NCBI GenBank assembly: GCA_020725585.1
Contig: DYES01000069.1
Span: 1,750-65,749 of the forward strand
Origin: Desulfovirgula sp.
Lineage (GTDB): Bacteria > Bacillota > Desulfotomaculia > Desulfotomaculales > Nap2-2B
Direction of reading: 5' to 3'
Length of the DNA: 64,000 nt
In this document: piece after piece, positions 4,320 through 27,392 of the stretch
How positions within the stretch are numbered: the first letter of the stretch is position 1
Layout: each line of letters starts with the position of its first letter
Program-made: the position numbers and the translations under genes
The notes under the pieces: generated by a model
Databases searched by the model: none
What the model saw: only the letters and a program-made list of their open reading frames with translations
What the model was told of the DNA's origin: nothing

Positions 4320-4445
4320 AAAAAAGCACTCCCTTCTAAAAATGTCTAGATCATTGGAAATTGATAACGCATATTAAACATTCTAAACCGCCAGCTTAAA
4401 AAAAGATAAACAACACAAGCAACAGATGTCGATTCTAACTCCTAT

Positions 4446-5603: not shown

Positions 5604-5631
5604 CTCTCCCCTCGGATTAATGCTACAGCTA

Positions 5632-6711: not shown

Positions 6712-6756
6712 TGTAAACCTCCTAAAAGGAACACCCTGAAGAGCTAATCTGCGGAC

Positions 6757-8466: not shown

Positions 8467-8646
8467 TTCCAGCACCTCCCTCATTACTTAAACATTTTTT
8501 TAGAAAACTTTTTAAAACTCTAACAAGTGCCTCTTTCTAGGAAACTCTTCCCCTTTTTAGCGTCTTGGTTGTTACTGCTGCTTTCGCACAACGCCATGCT
8601 CCACAGCCTCAGCAAACGGTTACACGAAGGATACATGGCAAAACAC

Positions 8647-14189: not shown

Positions 14190-14192
14190 TGG

Positions 14193-14768
14193 TCATTTCC
14201 CCTTTATTTGGCCGTCATTTTCCTTTTTTAACTCCCACTCGCAGCAGATTGCGCTGCCCAGCGTCTCGGGCGGCAGCCTCAGCGGCCTGACCTTTATTTT
14301 TGGATCGAAGTTGCGGGCGTACATTTCAAACATAACGCTCTCCACTTCCCGGCAGAAATAATTTTCCCTGCCCTGTCCTTCCTTCACAATCGCCTGCAGG
14401 GTGGGGCAGTTGGCAACTTTTAAAACACCGTGATTTTTATCCAGCAACTCTACCTCAAATTTTAAATTCCCTCCCCAGGGAGACAGCTGCATGGCTTTAA
14501 AAAGAGACTCGACGTCGTTTCCGGTAATGTTGAAAAGTGTGGTGATCCGTTTGAGCTCATACCTGATGTACTTGTCCCACGCCCACAAATCACAGGCCAT
14601 GGCCGTCTTGTCATCAAAGCGCTCTTTCACGGACAGGAACCAGAAACCGTCAATGGCCATAAATAATCTGCTGTACATTTTTAGAGCTTCCACCAAAGTT
14701 TCTCTGGAAAAATGGCTTAAGGTAATTTCCGGACGGAAGCTTCCGCTGTAATCTTTCAACTGGCTCAT
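14193..14768 (-). CDS. conserved hypothetical protein (Cys-containing; no confident family assignment)
   Basis: The ORF runs 14193-14819. The likely start is the ATG at 14768 (MSQLKDY...) after AAGGA. The stop lies 3 nt from the FadB-like start, so it sits in the operon. The C-terminal Cys pattern is NCP...FCRE...ICCEW. Confidence 0.6.
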   Translation of the reverse strand: MSQLKDYSGSFRPEITLSHFSRETLVEALKMYSRLFMAIDGFWFLSVKERFDDKTAMACDLWAWDKYIRYELKRITTLFNITGNDVESLFKAMQLSPWGGNLKFEVELLDKNHGVLKVANCPTLQAIVKEGQGRENYFCREVESVMFEMYARNFDPKIKVRPLRLPPETLGSAICCEWELKKENDGQIKGK

Positions 14769-14828
14769 AAAACAACCATCCTTTTTTAAAGGAATTTGAA
14801 AGTCAACCAACCAGTCCAAAAAGGCTTT

Positions 14829-15971
14829 TTATAATCCGAAAGCTTTGGCAATAATATTTTTTTGTATTTGGGTAGTTCCGCCCCCGATGGAGAGAATTAA
14901 AACATCCCGAAGGTACCTCTGCATGTCAAAATCCATCGCGGCGCTGTACCCACCCAAAATATTCATCCCCTGGAGAACTATTTTTTTGGCGGTTTCTGAG
15001 CTGAACCACTTAGACATGGAAGATTCCTTCGCGCATTCCAGGTGTTGGGTTTCCTTCCAGGCCGCGGAATAAGCTAGCCAGCGGGCTGCTTCGAGCTCGG
15101 TCGCCATTTCCACAAGCCTGTGCTTTATTCCCTGGAAGGCTTCCTCTGAGCTTCCCTTAAATCTTTCCTTGACAAACGTCAGAGCATCCTCGAAAGCCGC
15201 CTGGGCGATGCCCAGGGCGCAGGAAGAGAGGACGAGCCTCTCCGTGTTTAACAGTTTGACCATCTGTGTCCAACCTTTGTGAAGGCATCCTTCTCCCCCC
15301 AGGATGTCTTCCGGAGAAACTTTTACATCTTCGTAAAAAACTTCGCACGTATTTGACCCGCGGTAGCCCAGTTTTTCCAGTGGTCTCGCCTGGTACCCCG
15401 CCGATTTTGTCGGGACAAGAAACGCCGTAATTCCTTTGTGCTTCTCTTCTCCCGTGCGCGCGAAGGTGATCGCAATATCGCAAACGCCCGCCCCGGTGAT
15501 GAAGATCTTGCTGCCGTTAAGGCGATAATAACCGTCCTCGTAAACAGCCCTGGTTTTAATGCTGGCAGCGTCGGAACCGGCATTCGGCTCCGTTAAGGCA
15601 AAACAAAATTTCATTTCCCCTTTGGCCAACACCGGCAAATACATTTTCTTTTGTCCCTCGTTGCCGTTAATGGTGATAATTTCGTTTCCGTATAACAAGA
15701 TGTTGCCCAGCGCCCAGGCCAGGACGGGCAGCCTCTTTGATATCTCCTCATAGATGAGCATTGTGTCGATGACGTCCCCGCCCTCACCCCCGTATTCCTT
15801 TGGAATGTTTACACGCGTAAACCCCAGGCTGCTTAATTTTTTTAAAAGCGCGTCGGGAAATTCATCCTTGGCGTCAATTTCCCTGGCGTATTCCCTAGTG
15901 ATTTCCTTTTCGACAAACTCCCGGATCCGGGTACTTAAATTGCTGCGTTGTTCTGGCAAATAAAAGTCCAT
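14829..15971 (-). CDS. acyl-CoA dehydrogenase
   Basis: 380 aa. Motifs ALTEPNAGSD and GGYSAAMDFDMQRYLRD. The catalytic-loop position reads SIGGGT instead of IYEGT. Confidence 0.9.
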   Translation of the reverse strand: MDFYLPEQRSNLSTRIREFVEKEITREYAREIDAKDEFPDALLKKLSSLGFTRVNIPKEYGGEGGDVIDTMLIYEEISKRLPVLAWALGNILLYGNEIITINGNEGQKKMYLPVLAKGEMKFCFALTEPNAGSDAASIKTRAVYEDGYYRLNGSKIFITGAGVCDIAITFARTGEEKHKGITAFLVPTKSAGYQARPLEKLGYRGSNTCEVFYEDVKVSPEDILGGEGCLHKGWTQMVKLLNTERLVLSSCALGIAQAAFEDALTFVKERFKGSSEEAFQGIKHRLVEMATELEAARWLAYSAAWKETQHLECAKESSMSKWFSSETAKKIVLQGMNILGGYSAAMDFDMQRYLRDVLILSIGGGTTQIQKNIIAKAFGL

Positions 15972-16023
15972 GGGTTATCTCCTTTCCCGCACCGCCCTGG
16001 AAAAAGGGGGCATTTACGGACGC

Positions 16024-16473
16024 TTACCGCTCTTTTTTATGCATCAGGAATTTCATTTCACAGGTTAAAACTACTTCCCCTCGCTGATTGCAGACATTAT
16101 ACCTCCACGTCTGCACACCCTGAGCCGGCTTGCTCGTTTCTCTTTTTTCGATAACCTCCACTTCCACCGTAATCGTGTCCCCTATTTTGACGGGTGCGCG
16201 CATCTTCAGGCTGTCCACGCCCAGCCAGGCGATCACCGCGTCTGCCGCTACTCCCGTCATCCCTACCAGGCCCACCGCCATGCCGAAAATCAGCGGGCCG
16301 TGCGCCACTCTTTCCTTAAAAACTGTTTTGGCGGCATATTCTTTGTCCACGTGCAGCGGATAAAAATCCATAGTCAGGCAGGCCCAGTTGACCACGTGCG
16401 TTTCCGTTACCGTAATTGAAGCTGTTTTAAACTTAAAGCCTATGTCAAAATCCTCCCAAAACTTCTGCGGCAT
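16024..16473 (-). CDS. MaoC-family (R)-specific enoyl-CoA hydratase (hot-dog fold)
   Basis: The ORF runs 16024-16497. The likely start is the ATG at 16473 (MPQKFWEDF) after GAGAGGGGGG. DFYPLHVDKEYA resembles the MaoC D-x-N-P-[LI]-H-x-D loop. Confidence 0.82.
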   Translation of the reverse strand: MPQKFWEDFDIGFKFKTASITVTETHVVNWACLTMDFYPLHVDKEYAAKTVFKERVAHGPLIFGMAVGLVGMTGVAADAVIAWLGVDSLKMRAPVKIGDTITVEVEVIEKRETSKPAQGVQTWRYNVCNQRGEVVLTCEMKFLMHKKER

Positions 16474-16500
16474 AACCGCCCCCCTCTCTCTTTGCAATTT

Positions 16501-16917
16501 TCACTTTTTGACCGGCTTGAATTTAGGCAGCGTTATTTCCTCGGTCAACTTTTCAAAAATAACCTCTACCGGCATGTCGCAGTGAACTTCCTCTGGTGCG
16601 CAGCCGACAACGTTCGTCATCATCTGCACCCCTTCTTCGAGGCGTACCACCGCAACAACGTAGGGCATGTCGGCAAGGAAAGCGGAAGGGGCGTTGTTGC
16701 GCACTATCGTGTATGTATAGACAGTTCCCCTGCCGGAAGACTGCACCCACTCGATGCGGTCCGAAAAGCAGAAAGGGCAGCTCATCCGGGGGTAAAAGAT
16801 ATATTTCTGGCAGTCCCGGCATTTTTGGATGATCAGTTTCCCTTTGCGCGCGGCCTCCCAGTACGGAGCAGTCCAGGAGTTCACCGGCGGGACGGGCTTT
16901 TCTGGCGTATTCATCAT
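16501..16917 (-). CDS. DUF35 Zn-ribbon/OB-fold protein (stand-alone)
   Basis: 138 aa. Zn ribbon CRDCQKYIFYPRMSCPFC followed by an OB-fold segment (GTVYTYTIV...VAVVRLEEG). The stop is 3 nt from the long-ORF start of the MaoC gene (about 27 nt from the preferred ATG at 16473). Confidence 0.85.
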   Translation of the reverse strand: MMNTPEKPVPPVNSWTAPYWEAARKGKLIIQKCRDCQKYIFYPRMSCPFCFSDRIEWVQSSGRGTVYTYTIVRNNAPSAFLADMPYVVAVVRLEEGVQMMTNVVGCAPEEVHCDMPVEVIFEKLTEEITLPKFKPVKK

Positions 16918-17004
16918 ATCCCTCCTTTAACAAATGGTTAAATTTACATCTTTTACCATCAGCTTGAATTAGTCCGGCTTATTGTGAAAGACTAAAAAAC
17001 TTTT

Positions 17005-18192
17005 CTAAGGTATCTCCGTGCCTAAAATTGTCACATAGGAGTCCATGTACGTTCCGCCGGTTGCAGTCACCACAGCAAATCTGGCCCCGCTTACCTGGCG
17101 TTCACCTGCCTTGCCCATCAGCTGCCGCGCCGCTTCCACCATCAAAGCGACACCCCCGCCGGCGCCCGTGTGGCCCTGCGACAGCATCCCGCCGTTGGTG
17201 GTCATGGGCAGCTTCCCGCCCGGCCAGGTATTCCCCGCGTAAACAAAGGCACCTGCCTCCCCACGCTTGCAAAATCCCAGCTCTTCGAGGCCGATCAGTT
17301 GAAACACCGGGTAAGAATCGTAGATTTCCGCAACGTCAATGTCCTCCGGAGACAGGCCCGCCTTCCGGTACGCTTCTTCGGCCGCTTCAGCCCAGGCGAA
17401 ACGCGTCATATCGGGCTCCTGGGAAAGGGCGAAATGGGTGACGCGCGATCCTTCGCCCAGCAAATACACAGGCCGGTCCGTCAATTTCCTCGCCCTCTCG
17501 GCGGAGGTGACAAGAAACGCCGCCCCGCCGTCAGCAAGAACGTTGGATTCTTTCGCCCGCAACGGCGTGGAAAGCATTTTCGAGGCCATCACCTCTTCAA
17601 TGGTAAGGGGCTTGCGAAACATGGCGTTAGGGTTCAGCTCCGCCCACTTCCTGTTCGACACGCATACAGAAGCAAGCTGCTCTTCGGTCGTGCCCGTTTC
17701 GTATACGTAGCGCTGGGTAATCAGCCCGGCGATGGCTGAGTAGTGCAAGCCGTAAGGGGCCTCCCACTCTTTGGAAATTCCCGCCGTAGAAAAAAGATCA
17801 ATTCCCCCCTGTCCGGTTACGCCCGTGCCGAGCCTGTCGGAATGGACGCAGAGCACGCTCCTGGCCAGGCCGAGCAGGATGAGGCCGGCGGCCGTTTTTA
17901 GCATATTGCAACAACTCGAGCCCCCGGAAAAAACCTGAAAGTTCATCCTGGCCTTCCCGCATAAACCAAGCTCTTCTACGATTCGGCAGCAAACCAGTTC
18001 CGTGTTGTACTGGGGGCTCCAAAGGGCAGCCGTTGGAATAACCGCGTCAATCTCTTCTTTCTTTATCCCTGCGTCAATGATGGCCTGTCTGGCCGACGCG
18101 ACGGCAGAGACGATGGGCTCGCGCTCAGGAAACCTTCCGCTGGGAACTTCCCCAATGCCGACGATGGCCACCTTTCCTTTTAAATCGTCCAT
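17005..18192 (-). CDS. SCP-x/thiolase-fold protein lacking canonical catalytic Cys/His (Ltp2-like putative aldolase)
   Basis: The ORF runs 17005-18240. The likely start is the ATG at 18192 (MDDLKGKVAIVGIG) after GGAGGGG. It aligns well by eye to the neighbouring thiolase, but the catalytic positions differ. The nucleophile loop reads FSGGSSCC (thiolase: NMCATAS), EIYDSY replaces EVHDCF, and GGMLSQGHT replaces GGLKCFGHP. Confidence 0.8.
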   Translation of the reverse strand: MDDLKGKVAIVGIGEVPSGRFPEREPIVSAVASARQAIIDAGIKKEEIDAVIPTAALWSPQYNTELVCCRIVEELGLCGKARMNFQVFSGGSSCCNMLKTAAGLILLGLARSVLCVHSDRLGTGVTGQGGIDLFSTAGISKEWEAPYGLHYSAIAGLITQRYVYETGTTEEQLASVCVSNRKWAELNPNAMFRKPLTIEEVMASKMLSTPLRAKESNVLADGGAAFLVTSAERARKLTDRPVYLLGEGSRVTHFALSQEPDMTRFAWAEAAEEAYRKAGLSPEDIDVAEIYDSYPVFQLIGLEELGFCKRGEAGAFVYAGNTWPGGKLPMTTNGGMLSQGHTGAGGGVALMVEAARQLMGKAGERQVSGARFAVVTATGGTYMDSYVTILGTEIP

Positions 18193-18271
18193 TTTTTCCC
18201 CTCCTGCCTCGTTTTGTATAACTGTTGCGCTCTTCTGCAAGCATGTTCAGCCGGCCTACCTACTTTTTTGG

Positions 18272-19168
18272 TTATGGAACCAGCGTGTTTTTTAAACAAC
18301 GGCAAACCTCCGAATATTCCCTTGCCATGTCTTTGATAATCTCGCCGGCCGGCTTAATCTCCCCGACCTGGGCAACGCTTTGACCGGCGCTCCAGATATC
18401 CAGCCAGCGCTTTGACCCCAATTGGGGCTGTTTTTCCACCTTTTCTATGCTTTTCGCCAGCCAGCTGGCCGGGTTCCCCGTAATCCGGTCGGTAACGACG
18501 ATGTCTTCCGGACCGGCGGCAATAACCGCATCTTTATATGCTTGCGCCGCTCTCGCCTCTGAGGTGGCGATCAGGCGGGTACCCACGATCACCGCGCACG
18601 CTCCCACCGCAATGGCCGCGGCCATCTGGGCGCCCGTGCTGATCCCCCCCGCCGCAATTACAGGCAGACCTACTTTCTCCTTTAGATATGGGACCAGGAT
18701 TAAGGCCGGGATGCTGCCGCAATGGCCTCCTCCCCCGGCGCCTACGGCCACCAGGCCGTCCACACCGCAATTGCGGGCCCGCAGCCCCTGTTCCAGGGAG
18801 ACGACGCCCGCAAACACTTTCCCGCCGCAGGCGTGCACCTCATTCGCAATCAACCGGGGGTCTCCAAGAGCGGTAAGAAAAAACCTGACGCCATAATCGA
18901 GGCATAAGGCCAGTTGCTCTTTCCAGGGAAATTTACCGGAAAGGTGGATGTTTACCCCGATGGGTTTATCCGTAGCTTTCCTTATGCTCTCAAGGGCTTT
19001 TTTCAGATCGGCAAGCGTCCTGTAATTGGGCAACGGGATGGTGCCCAGGCCGCCCGCTCTGGAAACCGCCACGGCCAGTTCCTCATAGGAAACTAAAAAC
19101 ATGGGTGCCCCGATTATGGGGTAGTCAATCCCGAGCATCTCCGTAAAAACGGTTTTAATGCCAAGCAT
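18272..19168 (-). CDS. NMO/2-nitropropane-dioxygenase family flavoprotein (FabK-like enoyl reductase family)
   Basis: 298 aa. GIDYPIIGAPMFLVSYEELAVAVSRAGGLGTIP and GVDGLVAVGAGGGGH are typical of the NMO/FabK TIM-barrel family. Confidence 0.82.
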   Translation of the reverse strand: MLGIKTVFTEMLGIDYPIIGAPMFLVSYEELAVAVSRAGGLGTIPLPNYRTLADLKKALESIRKATDKPIGVNIHLSGKFPWKEQLALCLDYGVRFFLTALGDPRLIANEVHACGGKVFAGVVSLEQGLRARNCGVDGLVAVGAGGGGHCGSIPALILVPYLKEKVGLPVIAAGGISTGAQMAAAIAVGACAVIVGTRLIATSEARAAQAYKDAVIAAGPEDIVVTDRITGNPASWLAKSIEKVEKQPQLGSKRWLDIWSAGQSVAQVGEIKPAGEIIKDMAREYSEVCRCLKNTLVP

Positions 19169-19201
19169 TTTTACGACACCCCGCGTCTTTTCGAACTGTT
19201 T

Positions 19202-20440
19202 TCACTTTGGTCCCACAATGATCACGCTTACCGTTGCTCCCCCCGGGGTGCCCCCCAGGTTATGTGCCAGACCCAGCCCCGGGTTCTTTACCTGGCGCGG
19301 CCCTGCCTTCCCCTGGATCTGCTTGTAAAGCTCGTACACCATCCGCAGGCCCGTCGCCCCGATCGGGTGGCCGAAGCATTTCAAACCGCCGTCCATGTTT
19401 ACAGGCAACTTACCGTTTAGCTCAAAGGTGCCGGCCTCAATTTCCTCCCTGGCGCCGCCGCGACGCGTAAACTGCAGGTCCTCGTAAATAACCGCTTCCG
19501 TAATGGAAAAACAGTCGTGGACCTCCGCCATACTTATCTCCTCGCGCGGGTTTTTCACCCCCGCCTCCGCGTAAGCGGCCGCTCCCGCGCGGTAAGTTTC
19601 CTTTACCATCGTCCAGTCGTGCCGGGGGTTCATGTACCCCTCCTGCGGACCCACGGCAACCTGCAAGGCTTTAATGTAAACGGGATCGGGCCGGAAATTC
19701 CGGGCCAGCTCTCCCCTCACCAGAATGGCCGCGGCCGCGCCGTCACTCACCCCGCAGCAGTCGAGCAGCCCCAGCGGCCAGGCAATGATGGGGGCGTTCA
19801 GCACCTGCTCGACGGTTATCTCCCTCCGGAAGTGCGCCTTTGGGGAAAGAGTGCCGTTTTTGTGGTTTTTCACCATGATTTTCGCCAGCATCATCCTGCC
19901 TTCTTCAGGGCTCAACCCATACCTGTTAAAATAGCTTGTGGCCATCATGGCAAAGTGCCCGGGGGCCGTAAACATTCTGCTCCGAAAGGTATTCAAGGCG
20001 GTCGAAGTAAGGCCCATGGCCAGTTCGTCAGTGGGCAGCCCGCTGTAGCCGGAATCTTTTAATTTCTCCGCACCGACGGCCAGAGCTATATCACATGCGC
20101 CCGACGCCACCGCGTAGGCGGCCTGCCTGAGGGCGTCAGAAGCAGTCGCGCACATATTTTCCAGCCTGGTCACCGGCTTATAGTCCAGCTTTAAAGTTGT
20201 CGCCAGCGGCTGGCTCGGGGCCGGGACGCCCGACCAATAAGAGCCAAACCAGACTGCCTGGATGTCCCCGGGGGAAATGCCGGCGTCTTCGCAGGCTTCG
20301 TAGACGGCTTCAATAACCATATCATTTAGGCTCAAATCCCAGTTTTCGCCGAATTTAGTACATCCCATGCCAACTATGGCAACTTTATCCTTTATGCTCT
20401 CCACTTCGGTAACCTCCCGCACGCAGGCTTGCTTTAGCAA
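19202..20440 (-). CDS. SCP-x-type thiolase (catalytic residues intact)
   Basis: 412-aa ORF. An alternative GTG start at 20404 follows GGGAGG. Motifs: ENMCATASDALRQAAYAVASG (nucleophile Cys), EVHDCF, and DGGLKCFGHPIGATG. Confidence 0.85.
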   Translation of the reverse strand: MLKQACVREVTEVESIKDKVAIVGMGCTKFGENWDLSLNDMVIEAVYEACEDAGISPGDIQAVWFGSYWSGVPAPSQPLATTLKLDYKPVTRLENMCATASDALRQAAYAVASGACDIALAVGAEKLKDSGYSGLPTDELAMGLTSTALNTFRSRMFTAPGHFAMMATSYFNRYGLSPEEGRMMLAKIMVKNHKNGTLSPKAHFRREITVEQVLNAPIIAWPLGLLDCCGVSDGAAAAILVRGELARNFRPDPVYIKALQVAVGPQEGYMNPRHDWTMVKETYRAGAAAYAEAGVKNPREEISMAEVHDCFSITEAVIYEDLQFTRRGGAREEIEAGTFELNGKLPVNMDGGLKCFGHPIGATGLRMVYELYKQIQGKAGPRQVKNPGLGLAHNLGGTPGGATVSVIIVGPK

Positions 20441-20461
20441 GCCGGGGAAATCTGCCTGTGT

Positions 20462-21877
20462 TCACCTCACCGGCCTGCACTTCCACCAGTAAACGCTGAT
20501 GCCTTCTATTTCCCGAAACTTCCGGAACGTCATTTCTACCGGCATTCCTATTGTTACCTCCGCAGGGTCGCGGTCGGTCACATCCATCATGATTCTCCCC
20601 CCGCCTTCAAAATCGACTACAGCAACGGTCGAAGGCGGATCGGGGGAAACGGCCAGGCTGTCGTGGGAAAACGTTGTAATTTTCCCCTGTTTATCGGCAA
20701 AAAGGTAGTATTCGAAATCGTCTTTGGAACGGCACTCCATACAGATCCTCTGTACCGGATACTGGACGGTGCCGCAACGCCTGCACTTGACCCCGTAAAG
20801 GGCCATTCCGCACTTTCGGTCTCTCCATAAGGCCACCGCCGACACCGGCTCCTGGCGGGGGCGCGCCGGCGGCTCGGCGGGAAGAAATCCGCGCCAGCGC
20901 AAGTATTTCTGGTAGCTCAGCTTTCCCTTGGAGGCAAGCAGCCTTTTGACCGTATTGCGTCCCCTGGCCCTGGAAATTTCATTTGTGACGGTCAAGGCTA
21001 TTACGTCACAACCGTCGCCGTAAGATACCCAGAGGATCTTTTCGCCCGGCCCGGCCTCTTCCAGGGCCGCGGCAAGCAGCAGCAGAGGCTGGGCAGTTCC
21101 GCTGGCGCCCACTGCGTTGCACAGAGAGTCCTGAACCTGGGTTTTTAGATCAAACCCCAGCATTTTGGCCACAGTGCTTAAGTACCCGGAGTTTGGCGCA
21201 GAAAAGACGGCCCTGGAAAAATCTCGGGCGGTCATCTTAAATTTCTTCAACGCCGCTGCAACAGCCTCGGCAACCGTTTCCACATAACCCTTTTCCCGGA
21301 CAAAGCGGTCTTCCCACGAACGTAAGCAACGCTCCTCCGCCGGCCGGTAGACGTCATAGATCTCGTTGCTGCAGCTGTACATCTGGTCAATTGTAGCCAC
21401 AACGCCGGAATCGCTCAGCAGAAGGGCAGCCGCACCGTCGCCAAGCTCCAGCTCCTTCGGCCCGTTGGGCAGCCCCAAACGAAGGTCTGAAGCACAGACC
21501 AGCACGTTTCTGGCTCTTTTCCCCTGGATTGCCCCCGCCGCCAGCCTTGCGCCGCCTGTCCCCGATCGCAGCGAACCGGCAAGATCGATGGTCAGCACCT
21601 CCCGGCCGAGATCCAGTGCGGCCGCCACTAGAGCCGCCGACTGCTTTTCGCCGTAAGGGAAGGTGGTGGACGCCAGGTACAGTTCATCAATTTCCTGGGG
21701 GCCGAACCCCTTCAGACAATCCCTGCAGGCCTCAACCGCCATTGTAACGGCGTCTTCATCATAACTGGCAACCGCCCTTTCCCCCGGCAGAGGCAGCCCT
21801 CCCCAAAATGTGCTTATTTCTTCCCGGCTTAATCTGTAAAAAGGTATGTAGACACCGAAAGACTTGATCCCGACCAT
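20462..21877 (-). CDS. HMG-CoA-synthase-like condensing-enzyme fold fused to a C-terminal DUF35 Zn-ribbon/OB-fold domain
   Basis: The ORF runs 20462-22012. The likely start is the ATG at 21877 (MVGIKSFGVYIPFYRL) after AGGAGG, which removes the overlap with the upstream gene. The N-terminal ~350 aa are HMGCS-like (SYDEDAVTMAVEA, VSYGDGCD). The C-terminus has CRRCGTVQYPVQRICMEC plus an OB fold. Confidence 0.8.
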   Translation of the reverse strand: MVGIKSFGVYIPFYRLSREEISTFWGGLPLPGERAVASYDEDAVTMAVEACRDCLKGFGPQEIDELYLASTTFPYGEKQSAALVAAALDLGREVLTIDLAGSLRSGTGGARLAAGAIQGKRARNVLVCASDLRLGLPNGPKELELGDGAAALLLSDSGVVATIDQMYSCSNEIYDVYRPAEERCLRSWEDRFVREKGYVETVAEAVAAALKKFKMTARDFSRAVFSAPNSGYLSTVAKMLGFDLKTQVQDSLCNAVGASGTAQPLLLLAAALEEAGPGEKILWVSYGDGCDVIALTVTNEISRARGRNTVKRLLASKGKLSYQKYLRWRGFLPAEPPARPRQEPVSAVALWRDRKCGMALYGVKCRRCGTVQYPVQRICMECRSKDDFEYYLFADKQGKITTFSHDSLAVSPDPPSTVAVVDFEGGGRIMMDVTDRDPAEVTIGMPVEMTFRKFREIEGISVYWWKCRPVR

Positions 21878-21966
21878 AAGTACCTCCTGAAATGCCCTCG
21901 CCACTCCAATAAAGTCATTTAATATGAAGCGCTTTTTAGGTTTTTTGCTCTCTCTCCTTAATAGGG

Positions 21967-23403
21967 TTACTCTTCCCCTATGCCGGCCAACATTTCGGCA
22001 AGCTTTTTGCACTCGATTATCGCTTTTCTTGCCTCGGCGTAGATTGTCATCCTTTCAGCCTGCAGGGAGCCCTCCCCGTGAAGGGCGATTGTTTCCAGTT
22101 CCGCCCTGGTCATCCGGCGGATTAAATCGAACATCCGCAGCCTGTGCTCGGTAGGTATCCCGGCTTTGCCGCCCAGGTATTTCTTTATGTCTTCGTGGAG
22201 TTCAGGCAGCTGGTAATCCTTATACGTGGGCGCCGTGACCAGCAAGCCGCCCGCCAGATCCTGCACAATTTTCACCACATCGTGATACTTGCTGGCAAAA
22301 TGGTACTTGGCTATATTGGTGGTCACCGGATTCGGGACCGGTATCCCCCCGTGGACTACGTAATCCAGACAGGCGGAGCGCGACAAAGACCGGAGCGTTT
22401 CCAGATAAATCACCAGATCGGTAATTTTTTCGCGGACGTGAGGAACGTTTGCCACTCCGTTGTACTCGGCAATCGCCTGCGCCGCTCCTAAAAACTGCTC
22501 GGACAGCGGTATCCGGTACGCGCACCCGGTGCGCCGGTGCAGGAGGGCAAAGTTGTAGACCATTGTAACCGCGTACTGCCATTCTCCGCAAAGGAAGACG
22601 CGCTCCCAGGGAACAAAAACATCGTCAAAGATAATCAGCGAGTCGGTGATCATTTTCACCGGGCGCTTCCGCGGAAATTCGAAGGGGGTGATAAAGGGCT
22701 TGAAGGGACGGACCACCTGCTTTATTCCTTTAGCGTTGGCCTGGATGGCAAAGGCGACGGCGTAATCCTTATCTTCTTCCACCATGGCCCGGCAGGGAAG
22801 GACGAAAAACTCGTTGCTGTAAGCGGCGCCCGAAATATGCGCCTTGGCTCCCCTGACGACGATCCCCTTGCTGTTTTTTTCCACCACCCGGACGTAAAAG
22901 TCTTTGTGCGCCTGCTTCGGGTCAGAAGGGCGCAGGAGCCGATCGCCCTTTACGTCCGTCACCGCCGCGACCACCGCCAGGTCTTTCTTTTTCAAATACC
23001 GGCGGTAGTTTTCAATCCTCTCGATGTACTCCTTGTTTCCCATCGCATTAGCGGTGATGCTGATCGCGTTTAAAGCATCCGCCCCGATGTCGTGAGCCAG
23101 AGGGATGTACCCGTCCCCCAGGGTTGTCGCCTGTACGATCAGCTCAAACTGCTTCAACAAATCTTCGCCGTTTTTCGGCACGTAGTAATAACGGCTGATC
23201 TCTTCGCCCAGCTCTTCATCGTAAACAACGGCCAGGTCCTTATAGGCAGGGTTGTGGGCCATTTCAAAATCAATGGCCATGCTGTTTACGCAAACGGAAA
23301 TTTCCGGATGGGCAGTGACATCTTCGACTTTTTCGCCCTTGTAATAAACCATCCTTCCGTCTTTTAAGCTTTCCCTATATTCGTCTGCCGTCATTAAACC
23401 CAT
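21967..23403 (-). CDS. 4-hydroxybutyryl-CoA dehydratase / 4-hydroxyphenylacetate-3-hydroxylase (AbfD/HpaB) superfamily protein
   Basis: 478 aa. The N-terminus MTADEYRESLKDGRMVYYKGEKVEDVTAHP and the overall length are typical for this superfamily. It has an LLHRRTGC motif near residue 290. Confidence 0.7.
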   Translation of the reverse strand: MGLMTADEYRESLKDGRMVYYKGEKVEDVTAHPEISVCVNSMAIDFEMAHNPAYKDLAVVYDEELGEEISRYYYVPKNGEDLLKQFELIVQATTLGDGYIPLAHDIGADALNAISITANAMGNKEYIERIENYRRYLKKKDLAVVAAVTDVKGDRLLRPSDPKQAHKDFYVRVVEKNSKGIVVRGAKAHISGAAYSNEFFVLPCRAMVEEDKDYAVAFAIQANAKGIKQVVRPFKPFITPFEFPRKRPVKMITDSLIIFDDVFVPWERVFLCGEWQYAVTMVYNFALLHRRTGCAYRIPLSEQFLGAAQAIAEYNGVANVPHVREKITDLVIYLETLRSLSRSACLDYVVHGGIPVPNPVTTNIAKYHFASKYHDVVKIVQDLAGGLLVTAPTYKDYQLPELHEDIKKYLGGKAGIPTEHRLRMFDLIRRMTRAELETIALHGEGSLQAERMTIYAEARKAIIECKKLAEMLAGIGEE

Positions 23404-23496
23404 CTGTCGTTCACCTCTTTATAAAAAATTGCAGAAAAAATTACGGTTTGGCCCGCATCCGCCCCGCAAAAGGGCAGCCCGCGGGCCGCATCTTTT

Positions 23497-25110
23497 CTAC
23501 CAGTGCGTGGGCACCCGCGGAGTTCCGCGGTGGTACGGCGGGAAGATCTGGTCTTCGTAGTTGGTGCCCATCATCGCGTCCACGCACATGACGGCGCACA
23601 AGGAAGCTCCGTCAACGCCTCCGCCCCACATGCGCTTTCCGTACTGATCGCCTACGAAGTAGAGCCCTTCTACCCACGGGCACTTCACATCCGGCCTCTC
23701 CTTCCCGACGGGGCGCCAGTGCCCGTAGGCTTCGTCGGAAGGAGTCCACAGGCTGAACAGCACGTCTTCCTCCCAGGTCGGGAACGTCTTTCTGGCCCAG
23801 GCCTCGCACCACTCTATGCACCTCTTCACCTTCTGCGGGTTGCGCATTTCCGCATCCGTCAGGGCCACGGAGAACACGAAATCGCGCATCCCGTCGGGGC
23901 CCCTTCCCTGTTTATCGGCAAGGGTAGGCTTAGATACGCTGCCCCGGGCGCTGGAAACCATGTTCCACATCACGACGTCAACGCAGCCGATATAACCTTC
24001 GTGTCTGATCACGCCGGGCATGTAGATGAAGCTCCGCTCGTCTACCCCTTTCTCCGCCCACACGTCCCTCTTCAACCCGATGAAGCCGGAAAGCAGCCCA
24101 GGCGACCAGAATTCAGTCTCGACGGTCTTAACCCAGTCCGCCGGGAAGTGTCTGCGGTGCAGAACGCTGAAGATGTTTTTGGGCGGGATGTTGCAGACGA
24201 CCGCGTCCGCATGGATGGTCTCCGTACCGCTCTTCGTGCGGATAATCACGCCCCTGGCCCGGCCGCCTTCAATAATCACCTGGTCAACCAGCGTGCTCCT
24301 TAAGATTTCACCGCCGTTTTCCACCAGGCATTCTTCCATTGCCAGGGGAATGGCGATGCAGCCGGGATTGGCCACCGTTCCAACGGAGCCAGTCACGAGG
24401 TTCATTTTGATGTCCCTCTGGATCGCCATGTAGCCGAGGAAATCTCCGGCGGGCGTCATTGCAGGCTCGGCCTGAGCCGTCTGGGAGGAAGCCAGAACCT
24501 TGATGTAGTCGTACGCCTCGGGGTGAAACCCCCTCTTGTCCAGCCATTCCTGAAGGGAAATATTCATTTGGGCGGCTGCTTCGGTAAGATCCATTCTCCC
24601 CATGTCACGTAGCGCCTTCATGGTCATGGCGTAGCCTTCCGAAGACATCCACTGGTACGGCTGGCCCTTCCCCACCTGGTAGGCCTTGTTGCCGCGTTCA
24701 TAGTCAACAAACGCGAATCCCGTGTTGACAGGGATGTCCACCGGCTTCCCCAGGTGGTCCAACAGAAAGCGCACCCTTCCCTTGTTGCCCCAAAACAGGC
24801 CGTGGCCTCCCGCTTCAAACGTCCAGCCGTCGAGGAGACCCTTCTTAAACATCGTCTCGATGTCCGGCTGGCAGTACCCTATCCAGCACTTGGCCAGTTC
24901 GAGCGCGTATTTAAAGCCATCCGCATCAAGCTCCAGGCCGTCGATAACGACCCTGTCCCCTTTGCCGACAAACGAAGCCACCCGCCCTCCGATGTACGGG
25001 GCCTTCTCCAAGACAAGCACTTTCATCTTGAAGTCCTTGGCCAGCATCGCCGCCACGCCCATGCCGCCGACTCCCGAACCAATAACCACGGCGTCGTATT
25101 TTTTCGCCAT
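23497..25110 (-). CDS. NAD(P)/FAD-dependent oxidoreductase, phytoene-desaturase (CrtI)-like
   Basis: 537 aa. YDAVVIGSGVGGMGVAAMLAK...VLVLEKAPYIGGR is the amine-oxidase/CrtI-type dinucleotide fold. Confidence 0.75.
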   Translation of the reverse strand: MAKKYDAVVIGSGVGGMGVAAMLAKDFKMKVLVLEKAPYIGGRVASFVGKGDRVVIDGLELDADGFKYALELAKCWIGYCQPDIETMFKKGLLDGWTFEAGGHGLFWGNKGRVRFLLDHLGKPVDIPVNTGFAFVDYERGNKAYQVGKGQPYQWMSSEGYAMTMKALRDMGRMDLTEAAAQMNISLQEWLDKRGFHPEAYDYIKVLASSQTAQAEPAMTPAGDFLGYMAIQRDIKMNLVTGSVGTVANPGCIAIPLAMEECLVENGGEILRSTLVDQVIIEGGRARGVIIRTKSGTETIHADAVVCNIPPKNIFSVLHRRHFPADWVKTVETEFWSPGLLSGFIGLKRDVWAEKGVDERSFIYMPGVIRHEGYIGCVDVVMWNMVSSARGSVSKPTLADKQGRGPDGMRDFVFSVALTDAEMRNPQKVKRCIEWCEAWARKTFPTWEEDVLFSLWTPSDEAYGHWRPVGKERPDVKCPWVEGLYFVGDQYGKRMWGGGVDGASLCAVMCVDAMMGTNYEDQIFPPYHRGTPRVPTHW

Positions 25111-25133
25111 TGCCAGACCTCCTTAAAAACCGT

Positions 25134-25161
25134 AATTTAAATAGTTACAATTTAAATAGTT
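25134..25161 (-). promoter_or_regulatory. two direct copies of AATTTAAATAGTT (each containing the palindrome ATTTAAAT), 15-bp period, just upstream of the CrtI-like gene
   Basis: Exact 13-bp copies at 25134-25146 and 25149-25161, in the A/T-rich 128-bp gap between the SDR gene and the oxidoreductase gene. Confidence 0.4.
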
Positions 25162-25238
25162 CTCTCTTTTTGTATTTAGGCTAAATAGAAGAATGAAGGT
25201 AACTTAAATTTTAATTAACAGTTAGATTAAAGTGCCAA

Positions 25239-26003
25239 TTAGAGCGACCCACCCCCATCCATAACGATAGTCTGACCCGTCACGTACGAAGAAGCATCCG
25301 AAGCCAGGTAGAGGGCAGTTCTCGCCACTTCCTCGGGCTGGGCGATGCGGTTTAAAGGAGTGTGCGCCATCTCCACTTCCATCAGCTCTTCATTTGTCCA
25401 AAGCGCCTCGCTGAATTTGGTCTGGACGACTCCCGGGGCGATTGCGTTTACCCGGATGTTGTACGGTCCCAGCTCCAAAGCCAGCTGCTTGGTCAACATG
25501 ATGATCGCCGCTTTGCTGATGCAGTACAGGCCCAGGCCTTTGTCCGGGCTGATTCCGCCGACGGAAGAAATGTTGATTATATTTCCTCCCCCCTGCTCGA
25601 TCATCAACTTGGCAACAAGCTGGCTTAAGATGGTATAGCCTTTTAAGTTAGTGTTCATGATCTGGTCGTACATTCTCTCGTCCATGTTCACCAGCGGCCC
25701 CATGCCCGGATTCGTCGCCGCGTTGTTCACCAAAATATCAATCCGGCCGTACGCCTCCCTAACCTTTTCGTAAAGATTGCGCAGATCCTCCGGCTTCCGG
25801 ACGTGGGCCGCAACGGGCAGGGCCCTTCTCCCCAGCTTGCGGATCTCCTCGGCCACCTCCTCAAGGTGCGGTTGGTTCCGGCAACAAAAGGCCAGATCCG
25901 CGCCCGCGTCGGCAAAAATCATGGCGATGGCCTTGCCGATTCCGCGGCATGCCCCCGTAACCAGGGCAACCTTTCCTTCCAGCGATAGATAAGAAATGTC
26001 CAA
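25239..26003 (-). CDS. SDR-family oxidoreductase (FabG-like 3-oxoacyl/3-hydroxyacyl reductase)
   Basis: 254 aa. Motifs GKVALVTGACRGIGKAIA, NNAA and the catalytic YCISKAAI (YxxxK). Confidence 0.9.
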   Translation of the reverse strand: MDISYLSLEGKVALVTGACRGIGKAIAMIFADAGADLAFCCRNQPHLEEVAEEIRKLGRRALPVAAHVRKPEDLRNLYEKVREAYGRIDILVNNAATNPGMGPLVNMDERMYDQIMNTNLKGYTILSQLVAKLMIEQGGGNIINISSVGGISPDKGLGLYCISKAAIIMLTKQLALELGPYNIRVNAIAPGVVQTKFSEALWTNEELMEVEMAHTPLNRIAQPEEVARTALYLASDASSYVTGQTIVMDGGGSL

Positions 26004-26084
26004 GACTACTCCCCCTTTTTGATAAATTTTTTATAAAAACTTATTCAGCCAACCTTACTGAAAAGCGCCTGAAAAGCATACATA

Positions 26085-27392
26085 CTATACGTCCTGCTCT
26101 TGATAAAGGCCGAAATCAAACCCTTCTTTACCCTTGTACCGGTCGTAGAGGTAATGCCGGTACTTTACGTACTCTTCCATTTTGCACTCTATATCTTCAT
26201 CCCGCAAAGCCTTGATAAAATCGTCCAGCTTTGGCGGGCAACCTTTTACCTCAATCGCCTTTTTAATGTTGGGGTTGCCTTTATTTGCCTGGCAGGCGCA
26301 TTTCCCGAAAAGTACCGTTTTTTCAAAACCAGGCGAAGCGGTTTGGATTTTTCCGCTCAAAACCTCTACTCCCGGAAAAGGCTCGCCCGTAAAAGCCGAC
26401 ATCAGCAGAATAATCATCGGAGTAAATGATACCGAACAACCGGTGCACAAAGTATTGTCGTACTTCCTGATGGCAAGGCCGGTTATGCCTCTTTTTTTAA
26501 AACCTTCCGGGCCCGTATTTTCCGGGGTCCACTCAAAGTCGTAAGCAACAAACTGGCGGTGTTTTTCAACATCCTCGCCCAGCACCTCAATGTCGGCCAA
26601 GTCGTAGCTGCGTCCGTGGAGATCGGCGTAGAATTTAAGATGGGGGACGTCTTTGACGTGGTAACCCATGATTTCTGCACCTACTGCGTCGCAGGCGTAA
26701 GGGTCTTTTGAGGCGATGAGCAAATCCTTACGGTATGCCTTGCCTGTATAGCTGGGGCCTCTTTCCAGGACAAAAACGCCGTCGATGATGGTGAGCGCGA
26801 GGGGAAGCTTGTCCGCAACACGGGGGAACGTCTGCGCAAGATCGGCTTCCGTTTTGCCGTGGCAAAACATTTTCGACTTCCTGTCCAGGCACCCTTTGAG
26901 ATTTTTAAACCCCAGGGACACCTTGGTCTGGTTGTGGGTTTTCAAAACCGGCAAGTTGATTATTTTATCTGCTTCGAGAGCTTTTTTTGCCACCGCGAGC
27001 TTAAAACCGCCAACGTCCACTGGTTCGAACCTGTCTTCGTTAAAGTCGACCAGCTCAACGCCGTACTTTTTCTGAAGCTTCTCGTACCCCAAAATTTTGA
27101 ACATATGCCTCCCCATAGTCCGGGGAATCATCAGGGGAGCTTCCCCGATTTTTATTTTGTTATAACCTCCCTCGGCCAGAATTTTAACGAGGGCATAGAC
27201 AACCGCGCTGGTTACCACAAGGCCAAAAGGCGGCACGGGAAGCTCAAAGTCCCAGCCAACGAGATTAGGCTTGATCAATATCTGGTCGCTTTCCCGAAAC
27301 CCCTTTAAGCCGTCGCATAAGTCCAGAGCCTCCTTTAAAGCCATTTCGTACGGAGCCCTGAAACGGACCACCGACACAACGGCCTTTTCCAA
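26085..27392 (-). CDS. DUF362 domain-containing protein with Cys-rich C-terminal extension
   Basis: 435 aa. TTG start after GAAAGGAGAG. ILIKPNLV and LPVLKTHNQTKVSLGFKNLKGC are DUF362-like. The C-terminal region carries CTGCS and GKCACQ...KGCP. Confidence 0.7.
   Translation of the reverse strand: MEKAVVSVVRFRAPYEMALKEALDLCDGLKGFRESDQILIKPNLVGWDFELPVPPFGLVVTSAVVYALVKILAEGGYNKIKIGEAPLMIPRTMGRHMFKILGYEKLQKKYGVELVDFNEDRFEPVDVGGFKLAVAKKALEADKIINLPVLKTHNQTKVSLGFKNLKGCLDRKSKMFCHGKTEADLAQTFPRVADKLPLALTIIDGVFVLERGPSYTGKAYRKDLLIASKDPYACDAVGAEIMGYHVKDVPHLKFYADLHGRSYDLADIEVLGEDVEKHRQFVAYDFEWTPENTGPEGFKKRGITGLAIRKYDNTLCTGCSVSFTPMIILLMSAFTGEPFPGVEVLSGKIQTASPGFEKTVLFGKCACQANKGNPNIKKAIEVKGCPPKLDDFIKALRDEDIECKMEEYVKYRHYLYDRYKGKEGFDFGLYQEQDV

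Follow-up and report, generated by a model that had tools for sequence, protein, structure and literature searches.

A thiolase and a tetrad-less HMG-CoA-synthase-like::DUF35 fusion from a Desulfovirgula-like anaerobe: a probable degradative thiolase complex in a catabolic cluster

Introduction

What does an apparently intact thiolase do beside a partner that resembles HMG-CoA synthase (HMGCS) and has none of its catalytic residues? Two minus-strand genes in a 64-kb stretch of DNA (here called the window) from a Desulfovirgula-like anaerobic member of the Bacillota raise this question. One encodes an HMGCS-like (HMGS-like) domain fused to DUF35; the other, 57 nt further along in the same direction, encodes the thiolase, and together they fill positions 19202-21877. 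An earlier note, made from the sequence, recognized this arrangement and its kinship with the archaeal thiolase/HMGCS/DUF35 complex, knew of no characterized member, and left the partner as either a pseudo-enzyme scaffold or a repurposed active site.

The architecture is already known, and the pair in the window is an ordinary member of a widespread module, found here in an unstudied anaerobe. In our judgment, the two genes probably encode an ACAT/HMGS-DUF35 thiolase complex within a catabolic cluster, in which a degradative 3-oxoacyl-CoA thiolase is joined by a pseudo-enzyme HMGS-like scaffold.

An HMGS-like domain fused to DUF35

The fusion gene (20462..21877, minus strand) runs from an ATG at 21877 to a TGA at 20462-20464, as assigned from the open reading frame and a ribosome-binding site; the sequence GGAGG lies 6 nt before the ATG. 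The mechanically called frame extends to a GTG at 22012, and homologs are approximately 471 aa long. From the ATG, a single continuous reading frame passes through the HMGS-like domain and DUF35 to give a protein of 471 aa, and a 471-aa protein identical to it is present in a public collection (P0001).

Three domains can be recognized directly in this protein. Residues 1 to 335 (20873..21877, minus strand) form an HMG-CoA-synthase-like domain of the thiolase superfamily that lacks the catalytic tetrad, as evidenced by PDB and Foldseek matches; Pfam returned only FabH-like matches for this part, all of them subthreshold. Next is the rubredoxin-like zinc ribbon of DUF35 (residues 360 to 386; 20720..20800, minus strand; PF12172, 4e-06), whose CxxC...CxxC cysteines, C365, C368, C379, and C382, were checked at the codon level and each reach at least 98% conservation across the fused family. 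The DUF35 OB-fold domain completes the protein (residues 396 to 471; 20465..20692, minus strand), with PF01796 matching residues 396 to 452 at 2e-12.

Searches against PDB sequences matched residues 2 to 330 to PhlA (5e-40 and also 2e-36) and to the archaeal HMGCS 6ESQ_I (1e-34), residues 348 to 470 to the archaeal DUF35 subunit 6ESQ_E (9e-15), and the OB-fold domain to PhlB (1e-4). An AF2 model of the fusion (pLDDT, 97.2; pTM, 0.95) was used for Foldseek, and the top structural matches were 6ESQ_I/J (TM, 0.91), PhlA 5MG5_A (0.89), and MucA (0.87). These matches, together with that of the thiolase to 6ESQ_A (6e-63), bear out the proposed kinship with the archaeal complex. Rosetta-stone variants of the fusion protein also exist, in which SDR and SCP2 lipid-carrier domains are added. 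A 723-aa protein (P0143) with HMGS-like, ATP-grasp, and molybdopterin-binding domains appears to be a chimeric gene call and was kept out of the evidence.

Family-wide loss of the HMGCS catalytic tetrad

At the four positions of the E-C-H-N tetrad of HMGCS, the aligned fusion reads T71-L103-S226-A258, and all four catalytic residues are thus absent. T71 (codon ACC, 21665..21667, minus strand) stands at the position of the catalytic Glu82, which sits in a G-S-E-S loop in HMGCS (PMC6392133) and aligns with T71 within A-S-T-T of the fusion. L103 (CTG, 21569..21571, minus strand) replaces the nucleophile Cys114, exactly where the earlier note had placed a Leu codon. S226 (TCT, 21200..21202, minus strand) corresponds to His238 because VFSAPN aligns with VFHQPN, again as previously read, and A258 (GCC, 21104..21106, minus strand) corresponds to Asn270. 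The loss of Cys and His had therefore been seen correctly but understated, since the tetrad is missing as a whole. The catalytic Glu motif had been described as retained; the motif in question, SYDEDAV (residues 38 to 44), is present but is a separate, structurally conserved motif.

The same losses are observed across the family, which we tallied from 143 representatives of 50%-identity clusters. The position of Glu82 is Thr in 120 of the 143 and Glu in none, and that of Cys114 is Leu in 99 and Cys in none. Position 226 varies among Tyr, Pro, Ser, and Ala, with His in a single representative, while Asn is kept at the fourth position in 46. Glu, Cys, and His are also missing from approximately 60 genome loci. 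In all, the fused homologs that we found span more than 10 phyla; none of them has the Glu or the Cys, and only the one just mentioned has the His. As a positive control, unfused HMGCS from Thermoproteales reads E-C-H-N at the same mapped positions.

These observations bear on whether the locus holds a genuine mevalonate HMG-CoA synthase/thiolase pair, as the label "hydroxymethylglutaryl-CoA synthase" given to homologs by some sources would imply. Against that label stand the absence of all four catalytic residues, the inactivity of a quadruple tetrad mutant of archaeal HMGCS (PMC12960953), and a score of 229.3 bits for the NCBIfam HMGCS model NF003274, below its 244-bit cutoff; the fusion scores 171.5 bits for TIGR00748, for which the cutoff is 353. 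Pfam scans of the 64-kb window also found no mevalonate genes. The companion idea that the fusion is an assembly artifact is ruled out by its recurrence across hundreds of independent assemblies; full-length fusions (approximately 470 aa) are represented in more than 130 clusters defined at 50% identity and occur in complete genomes such as that of Desulfosarcina variabilis. Alignment and distribution thus refute this reading in both of its forms, and we give it virtually no chance of being right. Genes of the fused family should not be named HMG-CoA synthase, nor should they be taken as evidence for a mevalonate pathway.

A second question is whether the HMGS-like domain has been repurposed, such that newly conserved residues run a second reaction on 3-hydroxy-3-alkyl or branched acyl-CoAs (retro-aldol cleavage, hydrolysis, or decarboxylation), coupled to the thiolase via a shared CoA site. 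Conservation within the fused family is considerable, with T71 at 84%, L103 at 69%, R104 at 88%, R133 at 97%, D147 at 92%, and D40-E41-D42 invariant. The PhlACB and MucABC structures retain an interfacial chamber (PMC12960953), and the thiolase fold can turn into an aldolase, as illustrated by the Ltp2-like gene of the same cluster, in which Gly replaces the nucleophile and a YDSY motif is present (compare PMC12329534). Nevertheless, most of the conserved residues look structural because they are common to true HMGCS and PhlA; P12, R15, the DED triplet, T45, P74, D98, E142, and R178 are shared by all three groups. At the former active site, the small or hydrophobic Thr and Leu are ill suited to catalysis, the His equivalent is variable, and the Asn equivalent is mixed. 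Moreover, no activity has been assigned to the HMGS-like subunit of PhlACB, MucABC, or the fused Pseudomonas complex. The new retro-aldol or retro-Claisen chemistry that the earlier note envisaged for this domain is therefore not borne out, and of its two options, the scaffold is the better supported, with no positive evidence for repurposing, which we consider improbable. As a counterpoint, the good conservation of T71, L103, R104, R133, and D147 would also fit a retained pocket, ligand binding or even catalytic, as opposed to an inert scaffold.

A thiolase with its active-site motifs in place

The SCP2/archaeal-ACAT-type thiolase gene occupies 19202..20404 (minus strand) and encodes 400 aa from a GTG at 20404. 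This GTG, which is preceded by GGAGG, is the likely start, rather than the TTG at 20440 from which the mechanical frame begins. The protein matches Thiolase_N (PF00108, 6.5e-19) and Thiolase_C_1 (PF22691, 2.8e-37), and it scores 555 bits for NF004810, well above the 403-bit cutoff. Among PDB sequences, 6ESQ_A is the best match, followed by BbsB (1e-42) and PhlC (1e-23).

The residues on which thiolase chemistry relies can be read directly. The nucleophile Cys (codon 20150..20152, minus strand; C97 in the numbering of the mechanical frame and C85 from the GTG at 20404) corresponds to Cys85 in the 6ESQ thiolase and is invariant among the 54 thiolases encoded next to fusions. The HDCF motif, H308-D-C310-F (19508..19519, minus strand), is present in all 51 that could be aligned there, and G-H-P, with H358 (19367..19369, minus strand), in 50 of 50. 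With Cys, HDCF, and GHP all intact, the thiolase is predicted to be catalytically competent, and the fusion beside an intact thiolase that had been proposed for this locus is confirmed.

This matters for a further possibility, that the pair is a Friedel-Crafts C-acyltransferase, CoA independent or acetyl-CoA dependent, akin to PhlACB (PpATase; 5M3K/5MG5) and MucABC (SmaATase; 9VBO). Both have solved structures as thiolase/DUF35 complexes, and their HMGS-like subunits, PhlA and MucA, have no catalytic Cys (PMC6392133; 9VBO); PhlA lacks both Cys and Glu, with catalysis performed by PhlC residues only (PMC6392133), and the HMGS-like subunits of the two systems, without Cys and Glu, are noncatalytic. 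The HMGS-like domain of the window, also without the Cys, is marginally nearer to PhlA than to archaeal HMGCS. However, the thiolase-like subunits of these enzymes, which acylate small-molecule acceptors, have lost HDxF, and this loss defines Friedel-Crafts acylases (PMC12960953), whereas HDCF is intact here. The thiolase is also far nearer to archaeal ACAT than to PhlC, and DUF35 is fused here instead of forming a separate subunit. PhlACB and MucABC belong to biosynthetic clusters with PKS (type III) or NRPS-PKS genes, while Pfam scans of 45 ORFs found no PKS or NRPS gene in the 64-kb window. Acyltransferase activity of this kind is very unlikely.

A widespread module in catabolic company

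We searched for related loci with the single fusion protein as the query. The fused, tetrad-less HMGS-DUF35 family comprises 619 clusters (below 1e-30, clustered at 50% identity) and extends over more than 10 phyla, and the order of fusion then thiolase was observed to be conserved in approximately 55 genomes. These genomes represent Desulfobacterota, Chloroflexota, Bacillota, Acidobacteriota, Myxococcota, Spirochaetota, Actinomycetota, Pseudomonadota, Rokubacteria, and one archaeon. The closest is a Desulfovirgula sp. metagenome-assembled genome (MAG) that is fully syntenic and whose fusion and thiolase are 74% and 89% identical, respectively, to those of the window; fused homologs from proteobacteria are 33 to 38% identical to the query. 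Homologous modules on annotated plasmids of Rhodococcus, Azoarcus, Variovorax, and Novosphingobium have beta-oxidation neighbors.

In the window, the module sits in a 28-kb beta-oxidation-type cluster, otherwise seen only in the Desulfovirgula MAG. Acyl-CoA ligases and acyl-CoA dehydrogenases, four of each, are encoded together with a FadB-type enzyme and TetR repressors, a combination that gives the cluster the pattern of substrate-induced catabolism. Adjoining the pair is an Ltp2/Sal-type aldolase module, in which the Ltp2-like aldolase is accompanied by DUF35 and a MaoC hydratase. The cluster also encodes a flavoprotein resembling 4-hydroxybutyryl-CoA dehydratase, a CrtI-like FAD oxidoreductase, and DUF362 and DUF6125 proteins. 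A scan of the region from 14 to 30 kb for promoters and terminators found nothing above shuffled expectation, which is neutral with respect to cotranscription.

Gene context is relevant to the direction of the reaction. Thiolases are reversible, and the complex could instead condense; a nondecarboxylative Claisen reaction would then initiate reverse beta-oxidation or the elongation of fatty acid-type chains, as has been suggested for archaeal thiolase assemblies organized by DUF35. Among known structures, the biosynthetic archaeal complex comes nearest; in Sulfolobus, a DUF35 protein organizes a ketothiolase/reductase/dehydratase assembly for fatty acid synthesis (bioRxiv 10.1101/2024.07.05.601840); and a FabK-like enoyl reductase gene (18272-19168) lies directly downstream of the thiolase gene. 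Yet the archaeal condensation is drawn forward by an exergonic HMGS step that has no counterpart here, the fused Pseudomonas complex made no acetoacetyl-CoA from acetyl-CoA (PMC12960953), the neighborhood has the catabolic pattern described above, and a Novosphingobium homolog is located in an estrogen degradation cluster. We attach a low probability to the condensing direction. Cleavage is most likely the physiological direction here, a point that we infer and that cannot be read from sequence.

Known systems and a proposed mechanism

The nearest precedent is from Pseudomonas fluorescens, and it answers the suggestion that this architecture had no characterized member. Liao et al. purified and assayed a complex of ACAT with a fused, tetrad-less HMGS-DUF35 protein (Nat Commun 2026, PMC12960953). 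It cleaves acetoacetyl-CoA and makes no HMG-CoA, and mutation of the HDxF His inactivates it. By its published description, this two-gene module shares with the pair in the window an HMGS-like domain fused to DUF35 and devoid of E-C-H-N, an ACAT-type thiolase with Cys, HDxF, and GHx, and a lack of PKS/NRPS neighbors. The difference is one of setting, an aerobic Pseudomonas in one case and a large catabolic cluster of an anaerobic member of the Bacillota in the other. The substrate assayed, acetoacetyl-CoA, is generic for thiolases and offers little guidance on physiology.

Other systems share parts of the design. The archaeal complex (6ESQ) has all three folds and the thiolase motifs in common with the pair, but its DUF35 protein is separate and its context is the mevalonate pathway, whereas here the order is fusion then thiolase and the context is catabolic; because the HMGS tetrad is absent, neither HMG-CoA synthesis nor its exergonic pull is expected. 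BbsAB, the benzoylsuccinyl-CoA thiolase (7PXP), is likewise SCP2 type, has HDxF, needs a DUF35 zinc-finger partner, and functions in anaerobic catabolism; in contrast, it does without an HMGS-like subunit and has DUF35 as a small, separate protein. We found nothing specific on the fused module in the literature on sulfate reducers and anaerobic degradation.

The edc estrogen degradation cluster of Novosphingobium tardaugens includes a thiolase and an "HMG-CoA synthase" (EGO55_13550/13555), the latter left without an assigned role by its authors (PMC7793797). In the copy of this cluster on plasmid p3 of Novosphingobium sp. ES2-1, a 467-aa fusion with 35% identity to the query and T-L-S-F at the tetrad precedes a thiolase that shares 46% identity with that of the window. 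Within a few genes are an Ltp2-type lipid transfer protein and an OB-fold protein, an arrangement also seen in the window. The edc pathway differs in being aerobic, oxygenase dependent (P450 and extradiol dioxygenase), and alphaproteobacterial, and the likeness in genes is no demonstration of a steroid substrate for the window.

Drawing on these homologs for complex formation, the inactivity of the HMGS unit, and thiolysis activity, we propose that the products of the two genes would form a single enzyme, a thiolase complex of the bacterial ACAT/HMGS-DUF35 type. In it, the thiolase subunit would perform all of the chemistry with its nucleophilic Cys, the His and acid/base Cys of HDCF, and the His of GHP, cleaving a 3-oxoacyl-CoA by thiolysis via an acyl-Cys intermediate and releasing acetyl-CoA or another short acyl-CoA. 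The fusion protein would act as a pseudo-enzyme in which E-C-H-N is lost while the fold, a dimer-type core, and the zinc ribbon/OB domain persist. Judging by the analogous archaeal complex, PhlACB, and MucABC, it may clamp thiolase dimers into a higher-order assembly and contribute to a shared interfacial CoA-binding chamber, and the fusion of DUF35 to the HMGS-like domain would fix a 1:1 stoichiometry. Within the TetR-controlled, beta-oxidation-type catabolic cluster of this anaerobic, Desulfovirgula-like bacterium, the module would then be responsible for thiolysis, with a carboxylate that is bulky, branched, or alicyclic as the probable substrate.

Implications

The pair in the window reveals no new enzyme class, and the fused tetrad-less module to which it belongs is very large and phylogenetically broad. 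Liao et al. read the P. fluorescens complex as an "evolutionary intermediate" without a pathway (PMC12960953). The consistent beta-oxidation and catabolic company of the module, including that of the edc cluster, argues against this view.

A bolder idea is that the HMGS-like domain serves as an enlarged binding pocket for bulky alicyclic, steroid-like, or isoprenoid 3-oxoacyl-CoAs and that the cluster encodes an undescribed, oxygen-independent pathway for them. We hold this to be unlikely but worth stating; if true, it would place a new pathway in thermophilic subsurface Thermoanaerobacteraceae. The pairing of a fusion-thiolase module with an Ltp2/Sal-aldolase module mirrors that of the aerobic edc cluster, and the parts of the window relevant to this idea are both modules, the dehydratase-like flavoprotein, the CrtI-like, FabK-like, DUF362, and DUF6125 proteins, and the four CoA ligases. 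With the module positioned beside an Ltp2/Sal-type aldolase in an anaerobe, this locus is a reasonable place to seek the anaerobic degradation of sterically demanding carboxylates.

The fusion gene and its thiolase partner

The minus strand carries every gene between approximately 1.3 and 29.5 kb of the window, among them a fusion gene joining an HMG-CoA synthase (HMGCS, or HMGS)-like domain to DUF35 (20462 to 21877) and a thiolase gene (19202 to 20404). The fusion gene runs from an ATG at 21877, 6 nt behind a GGAGG, to a TGA at 20462 to 20464 and encodes 471 aa. Its mechanical open reading frame begins farther upstream, at a GTG at 22012, and with that start the gene would overlap its upstream neighbor. 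A length of approximately 471 aa is typical of the homologs, and the public collection contains an identical protein of 471 aa (P0001). For the 400-aa thiolase, the most likely start judging from the sequence is the GTG at 20404, 8 nt behind a GGAGG, over the TTG at 20440 of the open reading frame list. The two genes are separated by 57 nt, in which a consensus scan, as a whole not exceeding shuffled expectation, detected nothing resembling a terminator.

Pfam places both DUF35 parts, a zinc ribbon (residues 360 to 386) and an OB fold (residues 396 to 452), in the C-terminal third of the fusion protein and yields only subthreshold FabH-type matches for the N-terminal part. Among solved structures, residues 2 to 330 match PhlA of phloroglucinol acyltransferases (5e-40 and 2e-36) and, at 1e-34, 6ESQ_I, which is the HMG-CoA synthase of the archaeal thiolase/HMGCS/DUF35 complex, while residues 348 to 470 match the DUF35 subunit of 6ESQ (9e-15). 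An AlphaFold2 model, made with 143 diverse homologs as input (pLDDT 97.2; pTM 0.95), has as its best structural neighbors 6ESQ_I/J (TM 0.91; rmsd, 1.7 Å), PhlA (5MG5_A; TM 0.89), and MucA (9VBO; TM 0.87), with free-standing bacterial HMGCS and FabH ranking behind them. The second protein is, by its sequence matches, an SCP2/archaeal-type thiolase, with hits to 6ESQ_A at 6e-63, to BbsB at 1e-42, and to PhlC at only 1e-23, and it passes NCBIfam model NF004810 (555 bits versus a 403-bit cutoff).

Loss of the HMGCS tetrad is a family trait

The HMGS catalytic tetrad consists of Glu82, Cys114, His238, and Asn270 in 6ESQ numbering (PMC6392133; PMC12960953), which we verified against the printed alignment. 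The corresponding positions of the fusion protein hold T71 (A-S-T-T), L103 (G-S-L-R-S-G-T), S226 (V-F-S-A-P-N), and A258 (G-A-S-G). An earlier note on this DNA had reported the missing Cys and His, which is borne out by L103 and S226, and had correctly located the Leu codon at 21569 to 21571. Its "retained Glu motif" (S-Y-D-E-D-A-V) is, however, a different motif, which is conserved in true HMGCS, in PhlA, and throughout the fused family (D40 and D42 are invariant); the catalytic Glu is gone as well, T71 standing in its place. The thiolase retains Cys97, H308-D-C310-F, and G-H358-P (open reading frame numbering). Cys, HDCF, and GHP make up the SCP2-thiolase catalytic set (PMC12329534).

A word-indexed search with the fusion protein retrieved more than 3,500 relatives. 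Nearly all of the best 120 are approximately 470 aa long, the shortest having 389 aa, and Pfam detects DUF35 domains in every one of them. When 1.84 billion cluster representatives were searched exhaustively with HMMER, 619 clusters fell below 1e-30; the top 150 are mostly full-length fused proteins, with identity down to 34%. In an alignment of 143 representatives of 50%-identity clusters of the fused family, position 71 is Thr in 120 sequences and Glu in none, position 103 is Leu in 99 and Cys in none, and position 226 is variable, with His in a single sequence; the four zinc-ribbon Cys residues are at least 98% conserved. Likewise, E, C, and H are absent from every fused copy at the 76 loci drawn from genomes of GTDB species, while five unfused Thermoproteales HMGCS, serving as a positive control of the mapping, give E-C-H-N. 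The tetrad-less fusion is thus a family trait, neither a chance pattern nor an artifact. A repurposed HMGS pocket could be read into the conservation of T71, L103, R104, R133, and D147, but has no positive support.

Two side observations concern variants of the family. Five loci from Aquihabitans, Microthrixaceae, and Actinomycetes metagenome-assembled genomes (MAGs; L038, L039, L041, L057, and L064) have all four zinc-ribbon Cys residues replaced (D-S-S-G/N) and keep the adjacent thiolase; this actinobacterial subgroup would represent a zinc-free DUF35 variant. A plasmid of the archaeon Haloferax sp. YSSS75 (L076, 6841 to 9340) carries the order thiolase, HMGS-like gene, and DUF35, with T-T-P-F at the tetrad positions, so that tetrad loss extends beyond bacteria and beyond the fused gene order.

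A conserved module with characterized relatives

Where enough sequence was available, at approximately 55 loci, the fusion gene is followed, at a distance of between a few dozen and about 180 nt, by a thiolase 39 to 89% identical to that of the window. Among the taxa represented are Desulfobacterota (including the complete genome of Desulfosarcina variabilis), Syntrophorhabdus, Dehalococcoidia, Bacillota, Acidobacteriota, Myxococcota, Spirochaetales, Rokubacteria, many Actinomycetes, and "Ca. Baldrarchaeum." The partner thiolases preserve the catalytic Cys (54/54), HDCF (51/51), and GHP (50/50). One Dehalococcoidales MAG (L006) holds two fusion-thiolase modules approximately 4 kb apart on one contig (1307 to 3937 and 8001 to 10642), which differ at the tetrad positions (AVPF and TLST).

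Several relatives of the module have been described. In PhlA, Gly115 and Cys83 replace the Cys and Glu, and the protein is noncatalytic within the Phl(A2C2)2B4 acyltransferase, where PhlC, the thiolase-like subunit, performs all chemistry with its Cys88 and the DUF35 protein PhlB bridges the dimers (PMC6392133). MucABC shares the PhlACB architecture (PMC12960953). Liao et al. (2026) cataloged HMGS, ACAT, and DUF35 together at 1,030 bacterial loci, 1,001 of them without biosynthetic neighbors, and purified a Pseudomonas fluorescens complex composed of a fused HMGS-DUF35 without E-C-H-N and an ACAT with Cys, HDxF, and GHx (PMC12960953). This complex formed neither HMG-CoA nor acetoacetyl-CoA from acetyl-CoA; rather, it cleaved acetoacetyl-CoA thiolytically, an activity lost upon the H294Y substitution in HDxF (PMC12960953). 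The window's pair shows every sequence-level feature of the P. fluorescens ACAT/HMGS-DUF35 class and is a further member of it. The earlier note's reading of a pseudoenzyme that partners a live thiolase and is kin to the archaeal complex is sound, and the observation is real; its view that the architecture was uncharacterized has been overtaken by the descriptions of PhlA, MucABC, and the P. fluorescens complex.

Genomic contexts

On annotated plasmids of Rhodococcus DK17, Azoarcus KH32C, and Variovorax, the fusion protein is called an "OB-fold domain-containing protein" or "FabH C-terminal domain-containing protein." An "acetyl-CoA acetyltransferase" always comes next, and the neighbors always include SDR genes, hydratases of the MaoC or crotonase type, acyl-CoA dehydrogenases, and CoA transferases or ligases. 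Plasmid p3 of Novosphingobium sp. ES2-1 has the pair inside an estrogen degradation (edc-type) cluster, alongside a lipid-transfer protein with an OB-fold protein, a P450, VOC-family proteins (extradiol dioxygenase family), the indolepyruvate-ferredoxin-oxidoreductase-type EdcC, and FadD3; this fusion copy reads T-L-S-F at the tetrad positions. In Novosphingobium tardaugens, the "HMG-CoA synthase" EGO55_13555 adjoins thiolase EGO55_13550, and Ibero et al. were unable to assign a step to it (PMC7793797). Longer metagenomic fusions extend the protein to HMGS-like::DUF35::SDR::SCP2 (P0199), HMGS-like::DUF35::SDR (P0268), and HMGS-like::DUF35::SCP2 (P0198, in which SCP2 is matched over two stretches). 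Their additional domains are reminiscent of peroxisomal MFE-2 and SCPx, and these SDR and SCP2 lipid-carrier extensions tie the module to the beta-oxidation of lipophilic substrates.

In the window, the cluster is headed by a tandem-duplicated TetR gene (28307 to 29515, minus strand; 402 aa, two TetR_N DNA-binding domains) and an ordinary second TetR gene (27583 to 28164, minus strand). Downstream lie genes for DUF362, SDR, a CrtI/amine-oxidase-like FAD oxidoreductase, and an HpaB-family protein; then the fusion, thiolase, FabK/NMO-type flavoprotein, Ltp2-like thiolase-fold protein with its own DUF35, and MaoC hydratase; and finally acyl-CoA dehydrogenases, DUF6125, a FadB-type enzyme, four acyl-CoA ligases, and a classical thiolase. 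The AMP-dependent ligases, which have homologs in relatives, occupy the stretch from 2688 to 10215 on the minus strand (2688 to 4319, 6757 to 8484, and 8647 to 10215 among them); two or three ligases also stand in tandem at actinobacterial module loci L048 to L059. Directly upstream of the fusion gene, the HpaB-family protein (21967 to 23403, minus strand) is closest to 4-hydroxybutyryl-CoA dehydratase 1U8V (1e-67) and vinylacetyl-CoA delta-isomerase 6VJR. It may be isomerase-type rather than radical dehydratase-type, because the printed alignment has non-Cys residues opposite C99 and C103, the two N-terminal Fe-S ligand cysteines of 1U8V.

A second thiolase-fold module (16024 to 18240, minus strand) comprises the Ltp2-like protein (17005 to 18240), a separate DUF35 gene (16501 to 16917), and a MaoC hydratase gene (16024 to 16497), a layout that is also that of the steroid side-chain hydratase/aldolase systems ChsH/Ltp2 and Shy/Sal. 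The Ltp2-like protein is closest to 4U4E, 9MYR, and Ltp2 (6OK1); Gly replaces the nucleophilic Cys (G-G-S-S), and Y-D-S-Y replaces HDCF. Its third motif position is Ser, in contrast to YDHF in Ltp2 and YDCY in Sal, and Sal is inactivated by C304S.

Only 1 of the 76 GTDB species-representative loci, from a Desulfovirgula sp. MAG (Thermoanaerobacteraceae), reproduces the entire cluster together with its gene order, at 59 to 89% protein identity; its 13 genes from DUF362 to FadB (L001, DYET01000098.1, 227 to 14958) are syntenic with 12177 to 27392 of the window. The other loci share at most the fusion-thiolase pair and scattered SDR or ligase genes. Elsewhere, the window encodes an MFS transporter (29785 to 31038), a nucleoside phosphorylase, shikimate pathway enzymes, and flagellar and chemotaxis proteins, and no mevalonate, PKS, or NRPS genes were found within it.

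Proposed function

Following established SCP2-thiolase chemistry, the motifs of which are present here, the thiolase would catalyze 3-oxoacyl-CoA thiolysis via an acyl-Cys97 intermediate, with the Cys and His of HDCF and the His of GHP likely providing acid/base catalysis and oxyanion stabilization. By analogy with 6ESQ, 5MG5, and 9VBO, and because the high pTM of the single-chain model shows DUF35 docked on the HMGS-like domain, we infer that the fusion protein would provide a dimeric scaffold, a DUF35 clamp, and part of an interfacial CoA chamber. The gene neighborhoods, the fusions to SCP2 and SDR, and the edc cluster point to a catabolic direction and a bulky substrate. A condensing complex is possible in principle but disfavored, since the HMGS step that would pull the reaction is lost and both the Pseudomonas assay and the catabolic context argue against it. 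A Friedel-Crafts acylase, a true HMGCS, and an assembly artifact were also considered and rejected. The remaining interest of the pair lies in its anaerobic host, in its substrate, and in the evidence for the family as a mainstream type of catabolic thiolase rather than an evolutionary leftover.
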